Below, piece by piece: positions 1,596 through 33,371 of a stretch of DNA of 34,179 nt. Every line of letters begins with the position of its first letter. Position 1 is the first letter of the stretch. The DNA comes from a virus. Its lineage: Duplodnaviria; Heunggongvirae; Uroviricota; Caudoviricetes. The stretch lies in the IMG/VR virus record IMGVR_UViG_2802429245_000003; one strand, written 5' to 3'. The notes beneath the pieces were generated by a model that had not been told where the DNA came from, did not search any database, and saw nothing but the letters and a program-made list of their open reading frames with translations. Position numbers and translations under genes: made by a program.

Positions 1596-1892
1596 TTAAC
1601 GGGTCAACAGCCAGACCAGCAGACACGCCACCATCGGCACAGCAAAATCCATCAGGCTTGCCACATCCCATACACGTGGATCAAAACCGCCCCACCACGG
1701 CATGTTGCTACGTTTCCCTTTCCCAAACTTTTCTATCCAGCGATATTCTGCCTGGGTGTGTTCACGCGCAATGAAGAACGTACAACCAGCTATCGCTCCG
1801 TAAGCCCAGTATCCTGTTATTATTCCGACGAAACATTGCACAATTATTGATGCAATAGCATGGATAAAAGGAGAATAGTCAATCTTATTCAT
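1596..1892 (-). CDS. small predicted inner-membrane protein immediately downstream of tailspike
   Basis: 98-aa ORF with hydrophobic segments (IASIIVQCFVGIITGYWAYGAIAGCTFF; VASLMDFAVPMVACLLVWLL); its ATG overlaps the tailspike stop (ATGA), suggesting translational coupling. Family not recognised. Confidence 0.45.
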   Translation of the reverse strand: MNKIDYSPFIHAIASIIVQCFVGIITGYWAYGAIAGCTFFIAREHTQAEYRWIEKFGKGKRSNMPWWGGFDPRVWDVASLMDFAVPMVACLLVWLLTR

Positions 1893-4648
1893 CAGAATGG
1901 CACCGTTTCAATAATCACACAGGGGCGCATTACATCCCCCATGCGGTTCTCAAGATACAGATAACCAGCACCATTTGGTGGCATAAATGATACGGTGAAT
2001 TTACCATCTGATCCCGTTGTACCAGTTAAGACAGATGAACTAAGTTCCACGTTAATTTTGTTAGACGACTGTTGTGGTGCAAAGTCTTTATCCGACGATA
2101 CTCCAAGCAACATCCCAACCGCCCTATAATTTCTGTCTCGTTCATGGTCGAATAAAGAAACTATAGCCATTTTGGTTTTTGTCGAAATAGGTATGCGCAG
2201 TGCCTGATCGTCGTTCAGGGTGGCAAAGAACTTATTGTCTCCCAGCCTGACAAACTCACCAGGGTTTATGATTTGCGCCGTGCGCAGGTCATACATACTG
2301 AACTGATTAGCTGCGCCACCGTCAAGATAGAATCGGTTTCCACCCTGATCGGAGATGTTTTTAAGAACCTTGGTCCCCTCACAGCGAATAAATGAGAACT
2401 CATCATTCCCTGTATCCTGAGAGGATACGTAAACTACATTTCCGCCAATGATCAGGTTTTCTAATGTCAGCGCGTCACCGGCCCCGGACGCAATAATCCC
2501 AGCCAGCGTGACCTTTTTACCTATTGAGTTTTTCAGAGTGACTGGCAAGGTGCGAATATAGCCGTCATCTGCTCCACAGAACAATTCCAGCAACCCAATT
2601 GCTCGATAATAGGGTCTGGTGTCTGTGCTGTAACTATCTGCATAGTTGTACCCAATCTCGGTAAACGTGTCGTCATACACGAGGCCGTCTATTGTCAGCC
2701 CTCCTCCGTAGGTAAGGCGAGCGCAGCAGCGCGCCACATAACCGTGCACACGACAATCTTTGAGTGTTTCTCGCAAACCACGGAACGCGTATGGCAGCCA
2801 GCAATCAACGACTAAGCAATTTGTATAGTTGGAGCCGTATGCCGCTCCATGTGACCCCATACCCGAATTTTGGGTTTTGCCTACAGGCCAGAAAGCAGTT
2901 CCGGTATAGTCAACGCCTCCACCAGAGACGACGCTATTCACAACTTGCGTCTCCCAACTAATCATCTGCGCACCGATAATATCGATACCGCGACGGCAGC
3001 GATATGTCTTAACATTTTCAACCATGGCACCGAAACACTGGTTGATGCTAATTCCGTATCCTGTCCCATTCCAAGTATCATAACCTCGGTTTGCATCCAT
3101 CGCGGTAACATCGCGGAGCACAGGAAGGTATGATCCTCGTACACGCAGACAGGTGTCAGAAAAACCACTAACAGTTATACCCTCTATCAATGTATCGGTA
3201 GAATACAATACATCCAGCCCTCTGAATCCAACGTCACCGGCCTTAGCATTGCTAGTGAGCTCGCGTGAAATAACAAACGCTCCTGTCATTTTAAACGTAA
3301 TAGGTTTGGATATGGTAACTACAGTCGCCCATTCCATCTTGAACTGATCTCCAGCAGCTGGAATGTTATTGAAAGCAGACTGACGACCACCGATTGTCAA
3401 CAAGTTTCCGCTATAATGCGAAATGTATCTGGATTGACCAGCATTAGCGCCAGTTGTGAACGTAATACGGACATTTGCATTTTCGCGGGTCAATGTTATA
3501 CCTGAAACTGTAAATGAAGCGCCGCTAGTTGCCGCTGTAACGGTTCCATATTGTATGTTTGACGCCGGAGCGGCATACCGCAACGTGTTGCACAGGCCAA
3601 CACGCTTTGTAGCGTGATTTACAGATGAGACTTTGCAAACCTGCCCCTCTATATCCTGTCCACGATTATCTGTCTGAATTAGCCTGGATGTCTGGAAGCA
3701 AACGAGATCCCCGACTTCAATATCAGCAGTATCGGATAGGGTAACAACACCAGCATTTCTGGCAGCATCAACTACGAGGTTAACTTGTTTTAAAAATACC
3801 CCTCGTATACGAATAGCGTAATCCGCGTCATAATTAGTAGCGTCAGGTGTGACTTTAGTGCTAACAAGGTGTACCCGCCCGTTCGCAATCCATTCAGTTA
3901 CAGCTTGGCTATCTTGGGATCGCTTGACATGAATTGACGTATAATTATACACACCTTGTTCAAACACCAGTCTGCGCCCCTCATCTACTGCTACCTGAGA
4001 CGCTGCCTGAATCGGGATTGTGTAGTCAGAGATTCCATCTCCCTGTTCACAGAACCACAACAATAAAATATCGCCATCATATTCCCGCTTCCATCGCCTA
4101 CCGATAGCGTCGACCAATACAGTACCTCCATTATCATCAGTGGTTGAGTCGGTATCGTCACGCACGAATATGCCATCTCCACCATCGTTAATTACAGAGC
4201 GTCCATAGCACTGGATTTTAATTCCTGCGCCAGAGTACGAACGGATGTCGTCGTAATTTCCCGCACCTATAAGCGACGCCCCACCAACCCCAGCTAATTC
4301 CATACTGAACTGATCAGGGTCATATTTAAGAACATTAGGAAAATAGAACTGCTGCGTGCCATATGCATCATATACAGCCATAGAATGGCCTTGCACAGTT
4401 ACAAACTTGGCAATCTGTCCGTTATATACCGGATATCCGGCAGCGTTAATGATGATTGGTTGAGATACAGGAACGTGAGAACCGTCTTCATTCTCCACAT
4501 AAACCTGAATCTGGTTTTCTGGATTTACCGGGTCAGTGTCAATTTTACCGATATAAATTTTGCCATTGGCAACTGCTTTAAAAGAGCGCGCCATAGTGAA
4601 GAGTTGCGATGGCATACTCACTACAACATTGGCTGTAATGTCTGTCAT
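1892..4648 (-). CDS. tailspike protein: P22-type N-terminal head-binding domain fused to a long divergent receptor-binding/depolymerase-like domain
   Basis: 918 aa. N-terminus [11 protein letters not shown]...[33 protein letters not shown]...[24 protein letters not shown] is near-identical in pattern to P22 gp9 head-binding domain; the rest does not resemble P22 gp9. Last gene of the late operon. Confidence 0.9.
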
Positions 4649-4794: not shown

Positions 4795-5046
4795 ATGGGA
4801 AGAGATGACCCGCAATTTAATCTGCGGCTACCTTACGAATTAAAGGAAAAAATAAAACAGCGAGCCAAATCCAATGGCCGCTCTCTTAATTCAGAATTAG
4901 TTCAGATAGTGACTGACGCTGTATCAAAGCCATCCAAAATTTCAGGCTATCGAGACGATGCGGAACGCATCGCTGATGAGCAGTCCGAACTTGTTAAGAA
5001 GATGGTGTTTGATACGCTGAAGGATTTGTACAAAAAACCCACCTGA
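4795..5046 (+). CDS. mnt: Mnt-family ribbon-helix-helix repressor
   Basis: 83 aa; matches P22 Mnt over most of its length from memory (…NGRS.NSEL.QIV.DA.SKPS...GYR.DAER.ADEQSELVKKMVFDTLKDLYKK). N-terminal strand reads PQFNLR (Arc-like) instead of PHFNFR. Confidence 0.9.
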   Translation: MGRDDPQFNLRLPYELKEKIKQRAKSNGRSLNSELVQIVTDAVSKPSKISGYRDDAERIADEQSELVKKMVFDTLKDLYKKPT

Positions 5047-5734: not shown

Positions 5735-6229
5735 GTGTCTGATTCTATGAGTTACGCTGTGCTAGTTGCCGCAACTCTATTTCTGGGGATAGGGTTGCAG
5801 ATTGCGTGGTTCTTTTTTTCTAGTTTTATTAAACGTAAAAGAATTGAATCAAGGATATCTGAGATTTCTATTGCTATAGGGAAAAATGCTGAAAATCCAG
5901 AGAATGAGGCCTGCGCACTGAATTACCTTAAAGAAAAGTTTTCCCCTGAAAAATTTGAAAACAGAATTACTGATGCTCTTGGATTGGTAATATCAGTAAT
6001 TCATATGCCACTAAGTTTGCTGATAACAGTGTGGTACTTCGCCATGATCGCCGGAAGAATATTTGGTTTCATGAATATAGAGCCTGTAGTTCTTTGGGTT
6101 CCAATGATACTGCAATTGTTGTTAAGCGTTGCTATCTTTATTTTTTCTGTTTTTATAAAAATTATCTTTGGAAGATACCCAGGAGAAGCGAAGGGATTTA
6201 ATAAAGAATTCATAAAAACTATAAAATAA
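5735..6229 (+). CDS. AT-rich gene for a predicted polytopic inner-membrane protein; candidate superinfection-exclusion moron by position
   Basis: AGGAGG at 5724-5729 followed by in-frame GTG (5735) and ATG (5747). Three hydrophobic helices ([24 protein letters not shown]; [26 protein letters not shown]; [28 protein letters not shown]). Sits where P22 has sieA, between gene 16 and mnt; no sequence identity established. Confidence 0.5.
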
Positions 6230-14735: not shown

Positions 14736-15629
14736 TTATTTTTTTGCCTTTTTAGCGGCGAAATACGGCGTCCAGTCACCAGTTTCCAGCGCCCTGGCTT
14801 TCAATTTGTCGAGGTTGTTGATTACTGCGCCGTTGCTCCCCTTAACTGTCGGGGTTGTGGCTGCCGTGGTTTTTGCTTTTGGCATGATTCTGGCTTTCGA
14901 TTCGATACGTTCCAGCAGACGACCAATTGCTACGGGGTTGGTAGCTTCTGCCAGTTGCTTGCGCAGTTCAGCGTTGCGACCTAGTGCCAGAACAACGATT
15001 TCCGGCTTCTCTGACTCAAACAGGATCGCGTTTTGTGTCTCGATGGGGATTTCCTCGAGTACGGCCTGCTCAGCTTCCTGATAGCCAGGAACTTTGAGAG
15101 CCTTAACACGTTGCTGATATTTGGATAATCGCTCTTGATAGGCAGCCTGAAGCTCCTGCTCCTTCTGCTTGCGAGCCATCTCCTGTTGCTGGTACTTGCC
15201 GTTATCCTCTGCCCACTTAGCCATGCGTTGCTGGTAGATTTCTTCATCGAAACCGATGTCCTCATCGTCCAGTTTTGGCATTCGCGGTGGTTGAGTGATT
15301 ACCGGCTGCTGCTCGACGGGTTTCTGAGACTGACGCATCAGCTCTTTCAGCTCGCGGTCTTTCTCTTTAATCGTCTTGCGCAGGTGTTTTACCAGTCCAT
15401 GCTCTGCGCCATCTTCGCTGGTTGGCGAATCCAGCTTTTCGTCACCAAAGTAGAATTCCTGTTCTGATTCGTCGTCATCAGTTTCAGTAGCTTCCTCTGC
15501 ATCATTGCCGGAGGACTCACTGCCATCTTCTGTTTCGACTTCTTCAGCCAGTTCGACATCATCAGGAATCTGCTCTGACGCGTCGGTTTCGATTTCAACT
15601 TCTGGTGTGTTTTCTGCCATCTGGTCCAT
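14736..15629 (-). CDS. scaffolding protein, P22 gp8 analogue
   Basis: 297 aa between portal and coat; highly acidic N-terminal third (Asp/Glu-rich) and charged helical remainder, typical of scaffold proteins. Confidence 0.8.
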   Translation of the reverse strand: MDQMAENTPEVEIETDASEQIPDDVELAEEVETEDGSESSGNDAEEATETDDDESEQEFYFGDEKLDSPTSEDGAEHGLVKHLRKTIKEKDRELKELMRQSQKPVEQQPVITQPPRMPKLDDEDIGFDEEIYQQRMAKWAEDNGKYQQQEMARKQKEQELQAAYQERLSKYQQRVKALKVPGYQEAEQAVLEEIPIETQNAILFESEKPEIVVLALGRNAELRKQLAEATNPVAIGRLLERIESKARIMPKAKTTAATTPTVKGSNGAVINNLDKLKARALETGDWTPYFAAKKAKK

Positions 15630-26151: not shown

Positions 26152-27471
26152 ATGGATAAAAAATACACAGATAAATTAGAAGCTTGCGAGTACTTGCAAA
26201 ATGTTGACATTTGGCTTGATAATGGAAATGTTGACATGTTTAAAGTATCAGATATTTTAAACAATCTGTTGAAATTAGGTGATTTTGAGAAATTTGACCA
26301 TACACTTTCACTTTTAAAAGCTGAAAGCTTTGCAGAGAAAATAAAGTTTCGTCTTTCACGAGTTGAAAGTCAACGGGATAGTATATTACACGTTATCAGA
26401 GAAGGTGATAAGAATAAAAACCTTAGAAAAATAATACTAAAATCATATGACACAAAAAAAACAGAAATAAAATCACTATTCAATATATTCTCCAGAGAAA
26501 GCGGGCTATATTTTAGGAATAACCATGGAAATCACTACAGTTATTTTGAAGATGATTTCTTAGATTACAGCAATACTGTAAAAAACACACTTAGAGACAA
26601 AGGTTTTGCGAAAAAACTTTTACAGCACAATCAAGAAAAATTTAGAATTCTCGATGATGCGATAGTTCATACTTTCAATCATAATTTCTATGCCATTTCA
26701 GATAAAAATGGTTATTACGACTCAACAAATGCAGCCCGTCTGGCAAAACTTAGCCATGTTAATTATATTAATAACGACAATGAAATAAGATATATTGATA
26801 AGGCTATTTTTTTGCCCATAGACCATGCATGCAATAACTATTATCATGCTCTTAGTGAATGTTTCGGAGGATTGAAATTTATAACAGAATTACCTGATGA
26901 CATTCCTATAGTCTTTACGGAAGACAGATTTAATGTATTGGATTTTATTGCATCGCGCCTATGTATAGACCGCAAACGTTTTATTTCTATACAAACACTT
27001 GCTAATACTCGAATTAAAAAGGCACTACAATTATATCCATATAGTTTTAACTGGAGTGAAGATATTTTTCATTTTTTTAAAAAAATATCATACCCACAAA
27101 CAACAGACTCTAAAATATATATTTCAAGGAGAAAGTCAAGCCGTGGCCCATTAAATGAATTTGAAGTTGAAAATGAGCTTAAAGAATTAGGTTTTGATAT
27201 ACTATACGCTGAAGACCTTGACTTTGCGCAACAGGTTTCAATTTTCTCAAATGCAAGCATCCTTATTGGCCCTCATGGCGCAGGCCTCACCAACATTCTT
27301 TTTATGCCTAAGAATAGCACCCTTATCGAAATATTTAACAGTGAATATATCCAACCTGATTTCTATCTAAGATCTCGCCATAATAACATGAAATATGCAT
27401 GTACCATTCAATTTAATAATACCTTCAATATCGAAGAGATAAAAGAAATCATAGAAAGGTGTCAAGAATAA
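26152..27471 (+). CDS. DUF563 / glycosyltransferase family 61-like protein (AT-rich moron)
   Basis: 439 aa; C-terminal signature …ISRRKSSRGPLNEFEVENELKELGF…ASILIGPHGAGLTNILFMP… typical of GT61/DUF563 enzymes; AGGA ribosome-binding site; AT content much higher than the surrounding phage backbone; no obvious signal peptide or TM helix. Confidence 0.65.
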   Translation: MDKKYTDKLEACEYLQNVDIWLDNGNVDMFKVSDILNNLLKLGDFEKFDHTLSLLKAESFAEKIKFRLSRVESQRDSILHVIREGDKNKNLRKIILKSYDTKKTEIKSLFNIFSRESGLYFRNNHGNHYSYFEDDFLDYSNTVKNTLRDKGFAKKLLQHNQEKFRILDDAIVHTFNHNFYAISDKNGYYDSTNAARLAKLSHVNYINNDNEIRYIDKAIFLPIDHACNNYYHALSECFGGLKFITELPDDIPIVFTEDRFNVLDFIASRLCIDRKRFISIQTLANTRIKKALQLYPYSFNWSEDIFHFFKKISYPQTTDSKIYISRRKSSRGPLNEFEVENELKELGFDILYAEDLDFAQQVSIFSNASILIGPHGAGLTNILFMPKNSTLIEIFNSEYIQPDFYLRSRHNNMKYACTIQFNNTFNIEEIKEIIERCQE

Positions 27472-30790: not shown

Positions 30791-30900
30791 TATCAATTCC
30801 TATTGGTATTGCAATGAACAAATAATAGCAATGCGTATTAATCATAACAATAGCAAAACGTGTTTTGACCATCAATACGCAAGCGTATAAATTAAAACTT
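30791..30900. promoter_or_regulatory. immunity control region (OR-like) with divergent PR/PRM and repeated AATAGCAA(T) operator motifs
   Basis: AATAGCAAT at 30825-30832 and AATAGCAAA at 30849-30856; plus-strand TTGACC (30865-30870) then TATAAA (30886-30891) places a PRM-like promoter whose transcript would start only a few nt before the cI ATG (near-leaderless, as for lambda cI). Confidence 0.5.
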
Positions 30901-31593
30901 ATGAAAAAAGAAACTCTTGCTGATCGCTTAAACCTAGCGATGGAACAATCTGGAATGTCTCAAGGCGCTCTTGCAAAGGCGTCTGGCGTAGCTCAACCCA
31001 CAATCTGGAGACTGACAAGCGGCAACGCGCGCGGCTCAACAAAAATTGTTGAAATAGCTAATGCATTGGGTGTTCGAACAGAGTGGCTCTCATCAGGCAT
31101 AGGCCCGATGAGAAATGACGGTCAACAATTAGGGAAGCCTACTGCCAACCATCCCAAATACTTCAAGATTGACGTTCTTGATATAGAAGTGAGTGCCGGG
31201 CCGGGAGTCATCAACCGTGAGTTTGTAGAAGTTCTACGCTCGGTTGAGTACTCATTTGACGATGCTCGTCACATGTTCGATGGCAGGAAGGCAGAAAATA
31301 TCCGCATCATTAACGTACGCGGTGACAGCATGTCAGGAACGATCGAACCAGGTGATCTTCTGTTCGTTGATATCACTGTTAAATCTTTCGACGGTGATGG
31401 TATCTATGCGTTTCTGTATGACGACACCGCCCATGTAAAGCGCCTGCAAATGATGAAGGATAAGCTGCTGGTTATCTCTGATAACAAGAGCTACTCACCG
31501 TGGGACCCGATCGAGAAAGACGAGATGAACCGCGTGTTCATCTTCGGGAAAGTCATCGGGAGCATGCCGCAGACATATAGAAAGCATGGGTAG
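30901..31593 (+). CDS. cI: CI-like prophage repressor (HTH plus LexA/S24 autopeptidase domain)
   Basis: 230 aa from ATG at 30901; N-terminal HTH (MSQGALAKASGVAQPTIWRL) and C-terminal S24-like domain (…RGDSMSGTIEPGDLLFVD…HVKRLQ…) with the Ser/Lys dyad context. Confidence 0.85.
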   Translation: MKKETLADRLNLAMEQSGMSQGALAKASGVAQPTIWRLTSGNARGSTKIVEIANALGVRTEWLSSGIGPMRNDGQQLGKPTANHPKYFKIDVLDIEVSAGPGVINREFVEVLRSVEYSFDDARHMFDGRKAENIRIINVRGDSMSGTIEPGDLLFVDITVKSFDGDGIYAFLYDDTAHVKRLQMMKDKLLVISDNKSYSPWDPIEKDEMNRVFIFGKVIGSMPQTYRKHG

Positions 31594-31722: not shown

Positions 31723-32862
31723 ATGGCAGCGGTTGAATTTCAATTGTCTAGGAAGATGATTGATTGGATAGCAAATTCTCAAGGAGTTTCTATCGAAACT
31801 CTTGCTGACCAAGTCATGCCCAAAAAGATTAATAAATTTCTTAACGGAGTGGTAAGTAAATCCGCAGCAGAAAAACTGGCAAAAATTGGAGGAATCCCTT
31901 TCGGTTTTTTATTTCTTGAAACGCCACCAACTCCAGCCAAACCCAAGATCCCTGACTTAAGGCAAGCTATAAATAGCCGTGAGTTAGGAAAAGATTTTTT
32001 TGATGTTTACTATGATATAGAATATAAACTTGAGTGGTACAAAGACTATTTAAGAGAAAATGGTAATGATGATCCACTCGATTTTATTGGTAAATTTAAA
32101 TTTAATAGAAAATTAAATTATAAGGTTGTTGCTACAGACATAGCAAACACAATACATTTTGATATACAAAAAGAGATAAAAAATGTCACTTTTGAGAGCT
32201 ATTTTTCTAAAGTGGCAAAACTAATAGAAGACACTGGCGTATTAGTTTTCAAGAATGGTGTTGTGGGTAATAATAATAAAAGAAAACTTGACACGCGAGA
32301 GTTTCGTGGTTTCTGTATATCTGATAGCGTTGCTCCGATCATTTTTGTAAATAGCTCGGACGCGTTATCTGCGCAGGTATTTACATTATTTCATGAGGTG
32401 GCTCATCTTTGGCTTGGAGTCGATGGAGTCTCTGGGTGGGACACAGAAAAAAACATAGAATCTTTTTGTAATAAAGTTGCTGCTGAAATCTTAATGCCTG
32501 ATAATCTCTTCAAATCTTTCTGGCTTAATGCATCCAGCGATAATAATTATTATCGAGTAAAAGAGGTTTCTAAGTTATTTAAGGTTAGTGATTTCGCTTG
32601 TGCAATCAAAGCGTTACAATTAGATTTGATAGAAAGAAACACTTTGGAGATAATTAAAGATCAAGCTTACAATAAGCCCAAAAAAGAATCTAATGGTGGT
32701 TCTTTCTTTAACACATTACCTGTTCGTAACAGTCCAAAACTTACGAATATAATAATTTCCAAAGCAATGTCTCAACAATTACCATTAAGGGAAGCAGGCG
32801 TACTGCTAAATGTAAAAGCAGATACAGTTGTTGAATTTTATAAAAAACGAGAATCTCTATGA
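31723..32862 (+). CDS. HTH plus ImmA/IrrE-family (DUF955, M78-like) zinc metallopeptidase, first gene of a two-gene module in the rexAB slot
   Basis: 379 aa; N-terminal HTH-like region; HExxH motif in FTLFHEVAHLWLG with a downstream Glu; AGGTG ribosome-binding site; markedly AT-rich codon usage compared with cI. Confidence 0.7.
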   Translation: MAAVEFQLSRKMIDWIANSQGVSIETLADQVMPKKINKFLNGVVSKSAAEKLAKIGGIPFGFLFLETPPTPAKPKIPDLRQAINSRELGKDFFDVYYDIEYKLEWYKDYLRENGNDDPLDFIGKFKFNRKLNYKVVATDIANTIHFDIQKEIKNVTFESYFSKVAKLIEDTGVLVFKNGVVGNNNKRKLDTREFRGFCISDSVAPIIFVNSSDALSAQVFTLFHEVAHLWLGVDGVSGWDTEKNIESFCNKVAAEILMPDNLFKSFWLNASSDNNYYRVKEVSKLFKVSDFACAIKALQLDLIERNTLEIIKDQAYNKPKKESNGGSFFNTLPVRNSPKLTNIIISKAMSQQLPLREAGVLLNVKADTVVEFYKKRESL

Positions 32863-33371
32863 TTCATAATGGAAAATTCTTAATTGATAGTAATGTCTTC
32901 ATAGAGGCAAAAAACTTTGCATATAACTTCAATTATTGCAAAATATTTTGGGATTTTCTTCTCGCTTTACACATGAATGGTCTGATTTATAGCATTAATG
33001 CTGTAAAAAAAGAACTATGTGCAAAAGATGATCCATTGTGTAAATGGATTAAAGAAGAGTTACCATCATCATTCTTCGAAGATGAGCATAGTTCAATAGA
33101 AAATTATGCAAAGTTAATAAATTGGTCAACTAAATTAGATGTTACCGAAAAGGCAAAGTTTGACTTTGCAAGCCATGAAAAAGCAGATGCTTTTTTAATA
33201 GCCCATGCGATGACACATGGATATACTATTATTACCCATGAGAAACCATCCGGTGGCAAACCTAAAAAAAGAATAATGATCCCGGATGCTGCTGCTTCTC
33301 ACGGCGTTAAGACATTAACACTATATGAATTTCTTCCAAGATACGCTAGTCATAATTTTTCTTTGAAATAA
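32859..33371 (+). CDS. DUF4411-like (predicted PIN-like) protein, second gene of the module; candidate toxin/effector
   Basis: 170 aa; start overlaps the upstream stop (ATGA); N-terminal FLIDSNVFIEA resembles the first acidic strand of PIN-like domains; followed directly by a strong terminator. Confidence 0.6.
   Translation: MIHNGKFLIDSNVFIEAKNFAYNFNYCKIFWDFLLALHMNGLIYSINAVKKELCAKDDPLCKWIKEELPSSFFEDEHSSIENYAKLINWSTKLDVTEKAKFDFASHEKADAFLIAHAMTHGYTIITHEKPSGGKPKKRIMIPDAAASHGVKTLTLYEFLPRYASHNFSLK

Follow-up and report, generated by a model that had tools for sequence, protein, structure and literature searches.

The window analyzed here is a stretch of 34,179 nucleotides, IMG/VR virus record IMGVR_UViG_2802429245_000003, which is contig PTSN01000031.1 of the unclassified Escherichia assembly GCA_002965865.1. 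Most of it is made up of a P22-like prophage of the CUS-3/HK620 type, whose structural genes are 94–97% identical to those of phiv205-1, CUS-3, and HK620. Our subject is the tailspike gene of this prophage; a protein of the same sequence as its product (residues 1–918) is already on record under WP_336603102.1, annotated as "phage tailspike protein [unclassified Escherichia]". The gene lies beyond those for the gp16-like protein, SieA, and Mnt, where the P22-like late/ejection block ends and next to the immI region, with homologs of P22 gp7, gp20, and gp16 together with SieA and Mnt/Arc as neighbors, a position that matches the gene order of the P22 gp9 class. The gene and the segments of its product are:

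1892–4648, minus strand: tailspike gene, with an ATG start and 918 codons plus stop (stop codon at 1892–1894) in the open reading frame list
4310–4648, minus strand: P22-type head-binding (virion-attachment) domain, residues 1–113 (Pfam PF09008)
4064–4309, minus strand: linker and small "neck"-type domain, residues ~114–195, borders approximate (PDB sequence matches 6tgf and 5w5p)
3797–4063, minus strand: N-terminal cap and first β-helix rungs, residues ~196–284 (family profile, PF12708 on homologs, secondary structure of the model)
3533–3796, minus strand: β-barrel insertion ("rider"-type) domain with the near-invariant R329, residues ~285–372 (Pfam, HMMER)
3245–3532, minus strand: extra all-β segment without a gp49 counterpart, residues ~373–468 (gp49 alignment, model)
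2279–3244, minus strand: main β-helix with the groove residues N520, Y531, R552, D556, H600, R623, E627, and Y658, residues ~469–790
1895–2278, minus strand: C-terminal β-sandwich, residues ~791–918, border approximate

The strains that a phage can infect are determined by its tailspike bodies, which also provide enzymes that strip capsules. Modular tailspikes whose receptor-binding body has been swapped are ordinary objects, and this one has already been annotated automatically; it belongs, however, to an uncharacterized family, and its gene context gives a specific prediction of receptor and mechanism. The best overall explanation, to which we assign a probability of roughly 0.6, is that the product is a P22-like prophage tailspike with a capsule-depolymerase body.

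A P22-type head-binding domain joined to an unrelated body

A first-pass annotation, made from the DNA letters alone, had proposed that the first ~110 residues are a P22 gp9-type head-binding domain, and that the remaining ~800 residues are unlike P22 gp9 and longer than the Sf6 or HK620 spikes. Both parts of this observation are confirmed, because the head domain matches the P22 type while the similarity of the body stops at the head/body border. PF09008 (Head_binding) matches residues 1–113 end to end (positions 1–113 of 113, E = 2e-67, 225 bits against a cut-off of 24), and residues 1–120 align with the Sf6 gp14 and P22 gp9 chains in the PDB with E-values from 3e-66 to 1e-44, the identity to residues 1–120 of Sf6 gp14 being ~90%. 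At the DNA level, the head domain is 88–97% identical to many E. coli P22-like prophages, and in 29 phage records and 1,114 E. coli records the similarity does not continue past nucleotide ~340–370 of the spike gene.

Past residue ~120, the P22, Sf6, and HK620 chains gave no match to the spike in a search of PDB sequences. A tblastn search of residues 121–918 against 50,697 phage records returned only weak matches, all confined to residues 121–233, and a sensitive blastn search of the body against 5,426 complete E. coli genomes returned none. With 918 residues, the protein is also considerably longer than Sf6 gp14 (623) and P22 gp9 (666–667, both chain lengths), and than the HK620 spike (710). 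A near-identical characterized tailspike, which the first-pass annotation had named as the finding that would count against it, was absent from the PDB sequences, the phage records, and the complete E. coli genomes alike.

Fold and relatives of the body

The same annotation had described the body as repetitive, rich in Gly, Thr, Ser, and Asn, and consistent with a β-helix depolymerase. The compositional bias is weakly borne out (these four residues make up 32% of the body compared to 24% of the head, with local peaks of 53%), whereas true sequence repeats are lacking; the repetitive look is explained by β-helix rungs, as the structure model supports. This AlphaFold model is of a monomer and was built on 21 homologs. 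It is confident for the body, with predicted local distance difference test (pLDDT) values mostly above 90 from residue ~200 on. When the last ~240 residues were modeled separately, the helix went on and was followed by a β-sandwich without a close solved relative. The body is thus modeled as a right-handed β-helix with a β-barrel insertion and a C-terminal β-sandwich, which is the layout of LKA1 gp49 and the Klebsiella K1 lyases, and in this respect the β-helix proposal has held up.

The best two Foldseek matches of the model are depolymerases of the K1 capsule, namely the K1 lyase 7W1C and S2-4 9K4A (E = 8e-20 and 3e-18, 12–15% identity), whereas the TM-scores to the P22, Sf6, and HK620 spikes, normalized to the length of the spike, are just 0.16–0.26. 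A profile of the 67-sequence family detects LKA1 gp49 by sequence with E = 4.6e-14. By fold and profile, the closest kin are accordingly tailspike polysaccharide lyases (LKA1 gp49, phi297 gp61, and the Klebsiella K1 lyases). The body matches phrog_14558, "tail spike protein", with E = 4e-71, and taken alone it matches only this group. We found 22 body-related clusters in a large protein database, and an exhaustive HMMER scan of 1.84 billion representatives gave 220 matches at E ≤ 1e-3, with 63 at E ≤ 1e-30. The family is therefore rare: only ~220 clusters of the 1.84 billion representative proteins belong to it, and the 50,697 sequenced phages contain none. Its members span several genera, the body being 57–81% identical across Escherichia, Citrobacter, Leclercia, and Phytobacter.

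The individual segments have different affinities. The neck is where WceF (6tgf; residues 7–219, E = 4e-15) and an Acinetobacter phage tailspike (5w5p; residues 131–220) match, and it is the only part covered by weak tblastn and PHROG matches to many unrelated phage spikes; a neck domain has been described for WceF (PMC7949094). Where the helix starts, the family profile recognizes the "FGAxGDGxTDDT" beginning of pectate-lyase-like β-helices such as AlgE epimerases, Phi92 gp150, and PfbA. HMMER aligns the insertion stretch (~285–372) with the insertion domain of LKA1 gp49. Pfam K1-lyase_Rider (PF24149), which has a threshold of 27 bits, scores 15.3 bits for the spike, 27.4 for the homolog P0009, and 26.6 for P0011, and is listed for P0007, P0009, and P0011 in the precomputed Pfam table. 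In the segment that follows (~373–468), which the AlphaFold model predicts with confidence to be all-β, the gp49 alignment skips ~100 profile positions (296–395) against ~10 gp49 residues, corresponding to ~95 extra residues in the spike.

Candidate active site

Four polar residues, N520, R552, H600, and R623, are invariant in all 67 homologs, the most distant of which are only 21% identical. R329, Y531, D556, and Y658 are each found in 62–66 of the 67 (R329 in 64, D556 in 66), and E627 in 58. HMMER places R329 of the family on Arg329 of gp49 and R552/R553 on gp49 R458/R459; in gp49, arginines R329 and R459 are reported to constrict the groove at the active site (PMC5701251).

The conserved residues fall in the motifs GY531G, CRR552G, GSH600G, and FR623G. 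The spacing Y531-R552-H600-R623 (21/48/23) resembles that of Y311-R333-H373-R397 in the K1 lyase (22/40/24), although this is a comparison by eye and not a significant alignment. In the K1 lyase, H373A abolishes activity, Y311A leaves ~0.4%, and R397 has been given a catalytic role (PMC8822698). The stretch of gp49 that contains the putative catalytic residues His494, Asp497, and His499 scores −2.7 bits (HMMER domain 3) and is not spanned by a significant alignment; the spike has the invariant H600 in "GSHG" and no HxxDxH.

A mobile module with Tat-signal counterparts

The spike body is an exchangeable module, which is found in siphovirus-type, T7-like, and other phages and prophages behind different adaptors. 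It is joined to a P22 head-binding domain in the window spike and in the homologs P0002, P0007, P0008, and P0020. Behind GpJ, it carries Tail_spike_N in a Citrobacter prophage and an unassigned N-terminal region in siphovirus-type prophages of Leclercia and Phytobacter. Other copies have a T7 tail-fiber N-terminal domain (P0015) or a tail-collar fiber domain (P0004), and in a T7-like genome the body is paired with a separate adaptor gene. P0002, which is found in E. coli and E. marmotae (for example WJQ58234.1 and WP_252655576.1), is the nearest homolog, with 91% identity overall. Its identity to the spike reaches 99–100% at either end (in the head and neck and over the final 128 residues) and falls to 78–84% across residues 196–468, a mosaic pattern that suggests recombination inside the receptor-binding part of the gene.

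Two homologs, P0005 from Phytobacter palmae (gene at L008 9977–12595) and P0006 from a metagenome, are not phage proteins. Their bodies are 71–73% identical to that of the spike, they begin with signals of the twin-arginine translocation (Tat) type, SRRxLL...KALA (MALSRRGLLSK...KALA and MTISRRSLLSR...KALA), and their genes come directly after kpsC/kpsS-like genes.

As a separate observation, the spike gene of the P22-like prophage in E. coli ECCWS199 is followed by a gene for a 428-residue DUF6395 protein (L019 7676–8962). This protein is 79% identical to the DUF6395 protein encoded after the Tat-signal spike homolog in the kps locus of Phytobacter palmae (L008 12674–13960), and a 44-residue DUF6395 remnant occupies the corresponding site in locus L012 (7795–7926). 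The "SFSGGVDS" motif of DUF6395 resembles, by our own reading, the PP-loop of ATP pyrophosphatases. Spikes of this family may have in DUF6395 another type of partner that modifies the capsule; a relationship to the GT61 glycosyltransferase described below was rejected, as the two proved unrelated on comparison.

A linked capsule locus

Adjoining the Tat-signal spike homolog in locus L012, the metagenome contig, is a serotype-specific capsule region 2 that encodes a UDP-glucose 6-dehydrogenase, a UDP-galactopyranose mutase (scoring above its NCBIfam cut-off), an acetyltransferase, a GT2 glycosyltransferase, and a dual-GT2 polymerase. The same region 2 recurs in 40 complete E. coli genomes (~0.7%), ECCWS199 and BH100 among them, where it sits within classical kpsFEDUCS...kpsTM loci, and the cluster of the dual-GT2 polymerase has 639 E. 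coli members. Such a gene set would imply an acidic polymer of glucuronic acid and galactofuranose, and given the UDP-glucose dehydrogenase, the substrate would contain the uronic acid that a lyase needs.

E. coli ECCWS199 has both this capsule locus and a P22-like prophage, the spike of which combines an identical head domain with a distantly related body of the family. The ECCWS199-type body occurs in 4 of the 5,426 E. coli genomes, each of which also belongs to the 40 that carry the capsule locus (P = 2.5e-9; counting only two events as independent gives 5e-5).

The SSI designations of the reference strains for K53 and K93 do not occur among the names of the 40 strains. The K53 and K93 capsules are presumably polymers of galactofuranose and glucuronic acid, although the texts searched did not confirm this. 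A scan of species-representative genomes for the capsule polymerase returned mostly distant taxa and no Enterobacteriaceae hosts. In Acinetobacter marinus ANC 3699 (L020 14406–15659), a full-length GT61 homolog with 36% identity lies ~2.4 kb from a dual-GT2 polymerase homolog with 61% identity, and the association of polymerase and GT61 therefore reaches beyond the Enterobacteriaceae.

A capsule locus of this kind can also be borne by a plasmid. The 79.6-kb, conjugative-type plasmid pAL.H8 (NZ_CP082350.1, L013) of a pond-water E. coli carries, at positions 15628–36897 and flanked by insertion sequences (IS), a complete group-2-type locus dependent on an ATP-binding cassette (ABC) transporter, with KpsD/M/T/E-like and KpsC/S-like genes, dual GT2, glf, GT61, an acyltransferase, a sugar dehydrogenase, an O-methyltransferase, and DUF8374.

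A GT61 glycosyltransferase in the same prophage

The prophage carries a second gene with links to this type of locus, situated in an island between the replication genes and ninB:

26152–27471, plus strand: GT61-family glycosyltransferase, 439 residues (Pfam Glyco_transf_61, E = 2.7e-23), in an island of low guanine–cytosine (GC) content (0.30)

The protein is 64–69% identical to GT61 proteins encoded directly beside family spikes in a Citrobacter siphoprophage, a Phytobacter siphoprophage, and a conjugative-plasmid fragment, the spike gene in the last being 5'-truncated. Including the window, GT61 and a family spike occur together in four elements (the others being L006, L015, and L016). GT61 proteins of a sister clade, 52–53% identical, are found inside ugd/glf/dual-GT2 capsule loci on pAL.H8, in a Pantoea sp., and on the metagenome contig L018. 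GT61 matches were otherwise rare, with a single one among the 5,426 E. coli genomes (on pAL.H8) and none among the 50,697 phage records.

By analogy with CUS-3, the GT61 enzyme could add a side sugar to the capsule recognized by the spike and thereby alter the receptor in the lysogen, a proposal for which we consider the chances to be even. The CUS-3 prophage modifies the K1 capsule of its lysogen through the O-acetyltransferase NeuO (PMC3046976, PMC13001214).

Proposed mechanism and alternative explanations

The Tat-signal homologs in kps loci, the GT61 proteins, and the ECCWS199 subfamily constitute three independent lines, from which we infer a link to one type of capsule locus. The receptor of the spike is thus probably an ABC-transporter-dependent (group-2-type, kps) capsule made by a ugd/glf/acetyltransferase/dual-GT2 locus, and not an O-antigen. 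The first-pass annotation had expected a different O-antigen or capsule as the target, and gene context now favors the capsule. In the mechanism that we propose, the trimeric spike would dock on the tail through its head-binding domain and bind the acidic capsule along the groove of the helix, deepened by the insertion domain. The capsule would then be cleaved, probably by β-elimination at glucuronic acid, letting the virion reach the outer membrane, and in the lysogen GT61 would probably decorate the capsule and change the receptor. The predicted active site is a groove lined by R552, H600, R623, Y531/Y658, and N520, together with R329 from the insertion domain.

Several observations weigh against this explanation, some of which concern the chemistry. 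Outside the rider domain, hhalign gave no significant alignment of the family with the K1 lyase, and the catalytic mapping rests on motif spacing; the H494-x-x-D497-x-H499 motif of gp49 is not reproduced in the family; the ECCWS199 subfamily has Asn in place of Y531; and the conserved acidic residues D556 and E627 would also suit a hydrolase mechanism. Because of the K1 comparison, the Asn substitution, and the two acidic residues, we place the lyase mechanism only slightly above even odds. Others concern the receptor: the family has no characterized member; most characterized P22-like phages target the O-antigen; the capsule-locus evidence comes from the loci of relatives and from other E. 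coli genomes rather than from the lysogen of the window itself; the four-of-four association belongs to the distant ECCWS199 subfamily and not to that of the window; the composition of the polymer is deduced from genes alone; and GT61 lies ~21.5 kb from the spike gene in the window, not adjacent to it.

The alternative that survives best retains the group-2-type capsule but makes the spike a glycoside hydrolase, acting for example at galactofuranose or another linkage. It draws on the same gene-context evidence as the lyase, and it would agree with the conservation of D556 and E627, with the fact that Y531, the proposed equivalent of the catalytic Tyr of the K1 lyase, is not universal, and with the lack of a significant alignment to that enzyme. 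Against it, the sole detectable sequence relative with a solved structure, LKA1 gp49, has been proven to be a lyase by nuclear magnetic resonance (PMC5701251), no carboxylate pair is found among the polar residues that never vary, which are Arg, His, and Asn, and the UDP-glucose dehydrogenase of the linked loci points to a uronic acid in the substrate. We therefore regard a hydrolase as unlikely.

Somewhat more doubtful still is an O-antigen-specific endoglycosidase (a hydrolase) of the kind found in P22, Sf6, and HK620, in which case the links to capsule loci would reflect gene shuffling and be uninformative about the receptor. The Tat-signal homologs, however, reside in kps capsule loci and not in O-antigen loci, relatives of GT61 lie within those same loci, all four E. 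coli genomes with the sister subfamily have the capsule locus, and the best fold and profile matches are lyases. Moreover, CUS-3, a close relative in its backbone, shows that P22-like phages can target group-2 capsules.

Finally, a spike directed at a widely shared enterobacterial glycan, that is, colanic acid or the enterobacterial common antigen, both of which contain uronic acids, would explain the spread of the body over Escherichia, Citrobacter, Leclercia, and Phytobacter and has phrog_8280 ("colanic acid degradation", matching residues 1–320) in its favor, but this match takes in only the head and neck and the first part of the helix and does not extend to the body, which is why the colanic-acid spike was rejected. 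None of the 5,426 complete E. coli genomes has the module, which is unexpected for a universal receptor, and no wca or wec cluster is among the linked loci; we consider the whole idea highly improbable.

If the capsule-depolymerase explanation is correct, it makes a prediction that can be tested in the laboratory, namely that the substrate is the capsule of the ugd/glf/dual-GT2 kps locus, and if this were confirmed, the enzyme would be a reagent to type or remove that capsule. P22-like prophages may re-type group-2 capsules by means of a glycosyltransferase, widening the single well-known example of CUS-3 and NeuO, and capsule loci may hold Tat-exported copies of phage spikes, extending the case of WceF from Wzy-type exopolysaccharides to ABC-transporter capsules. 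A broader proposal, which is tentative and which we hold to be somewhat more doubtful than not, is that the spike body and GT61 belong to a common gene pool on which prophages and a single type of ABC-transporter capsule locus both draw, with exchange going either way. Bacteria would then have swapped the virion adaptor for a Tat signal and kept the body beside kpsS as a resident capsule-processing enzyme, and phages would carry the side-chain glycosyltransferase of the capsule, or DUF6395, to re-type their lysogens. If this were true, the receptor of an uncharacterized spike family could be read from the capsule loci that hold its domesticated copies.

Neighboring genes and a second island

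Three further genes surround the spike gene:

4795–5046, plus strand: Mnt/Arc-family repressor in the immI-type region upstream of the spike gene (Arc E = 1.5e-22, Mnt E = 2.3e-18)
5735–6229, plus strand: SieA-family protein in the same immI-type region (PF26849 on the called gene of 164 residues)
1596–1892, minus strand: predicted membrane protein of 98 residues (open reading frame list), the start of which overlaps the spike stop codon (ATGA); phrog_1443 (unknown function), E = 1.5e-49

The 98-residue reading frame at 1596–1892 is found in both host assemblies (GCA_002965865.1 and GCA_002965265.1) and had no matches in Pfam, NCBIfam, or PADLOC. In the sister assembly (L001), it is followed by an IS (DDE_Tnp_1) and then by the host genes zinT, yedD, amyA, and fliT. 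A scan for promoters and terminators around the spike gene gave promoter-like sites at chance level only, and terminator-like sites that lie outside or within the gene and have no clear meaning. At the other end of the window, a second low-GC island (31723–33371, plus strand, GC ~0.32) adjoins a CI-like repressor gene (30865–31593). It encodes a Peptidase_M78/IrrE-like protein of 379 residues, which PADLOC matches weakly to both capP and RmrA, and, in an overlapping gene, a DUF4411 protein of 170 residues; the two may constitute an accessory or defense pair of the prophage.

Comparison with known systems

With the spikes of its own phage group (P22 gp9, Sf6 gp14, and HK620 gp9), the window spike shares the head-binding domain (E-values down to 3e-66), the position of the gene in the prophage, and the general design of a β-helix spike. 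These proteins are, however, O-antigen hydrolases of 623–710 residues that lack this type of β-barrel insertion. CUS-3 is closer in its logic. Its P22-like backbone is nearly the same (96% identity over the structural genes and 91% over the head-binding domain), and it likewise combines a spike against a group-2 capsule with a prophage gene that modifies this capsule in the lysogen. The body of the CUS-3 spike is an endosialidase unrelated to the lyase-like β-helix of the window spike, the capsule is polysialic acid rather than the predicted polymer of glucuronic acid and galactofuranose, and the modifier is an O-acetyltransferase rather than a GT61 enzyme.

In the architecture of the body, the closest parallels are the lyases, since a β-barrel is inserted in the helix of the spike as it is in gp49 (PMC5701251) and the K1 lyase (PMC8822698). 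LKA1 gp49 and phi297 gp61 (PDB 4RU4 and 4RU5), which are lyases of O-specific polysaccharide (PMC5701251), are ~15% identical to the spike over the structural alignment. Compared to gp49, the spike has the additional segment after the insertion domain and a longer C-terminal part, its N-terminal adaptor is of the P22 head-binding rather than the phiKMV-like type, and the substrate of gp49 is the Pseudomonas O5 O-antigen and not a capsule. The K1 lyase of NTUH-K2044-K1-1 (PDB 7W1C; PMC8822698) and S2-4 of K64-1 (PDB 9K4A) carry a "rider" β-barrel in the helix, the Pfam model of which scores at or near its threshold in members of the spike family, and both are specific for capsule. They differ from the spike in capsule chemistry (Klebsiella K1, Wzy-dependent), in the type of phage, and in the adaptor.

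Lastly, the Tat-signal homologs have a parallel in WceF of Pantoea stewartii (PDB 6TGF), a Tat-exported, tailspike-like trimer from the gene cluster of the exopolysaccharide stewartan (PMC7949094), the head and neck of which give the match to residues 7–219 of the window spike, in that P0005 and P0006 are spike bodies with Tat-type signals beside kpsS. The β-helix body of WceF has no sequence kinship to that of the spike, and WceF keeps a head-like domain where P0005 and P0006 have a signal peptide; WceF is moreover a secreted bacterial enzyme, whereas the window spike is a virion protein. VexL of the Vi antigen system (PDB 6FI2) is, according to its PDB title, a periplasmic depolymerase of an ABC-transporter-dependent capsule system.

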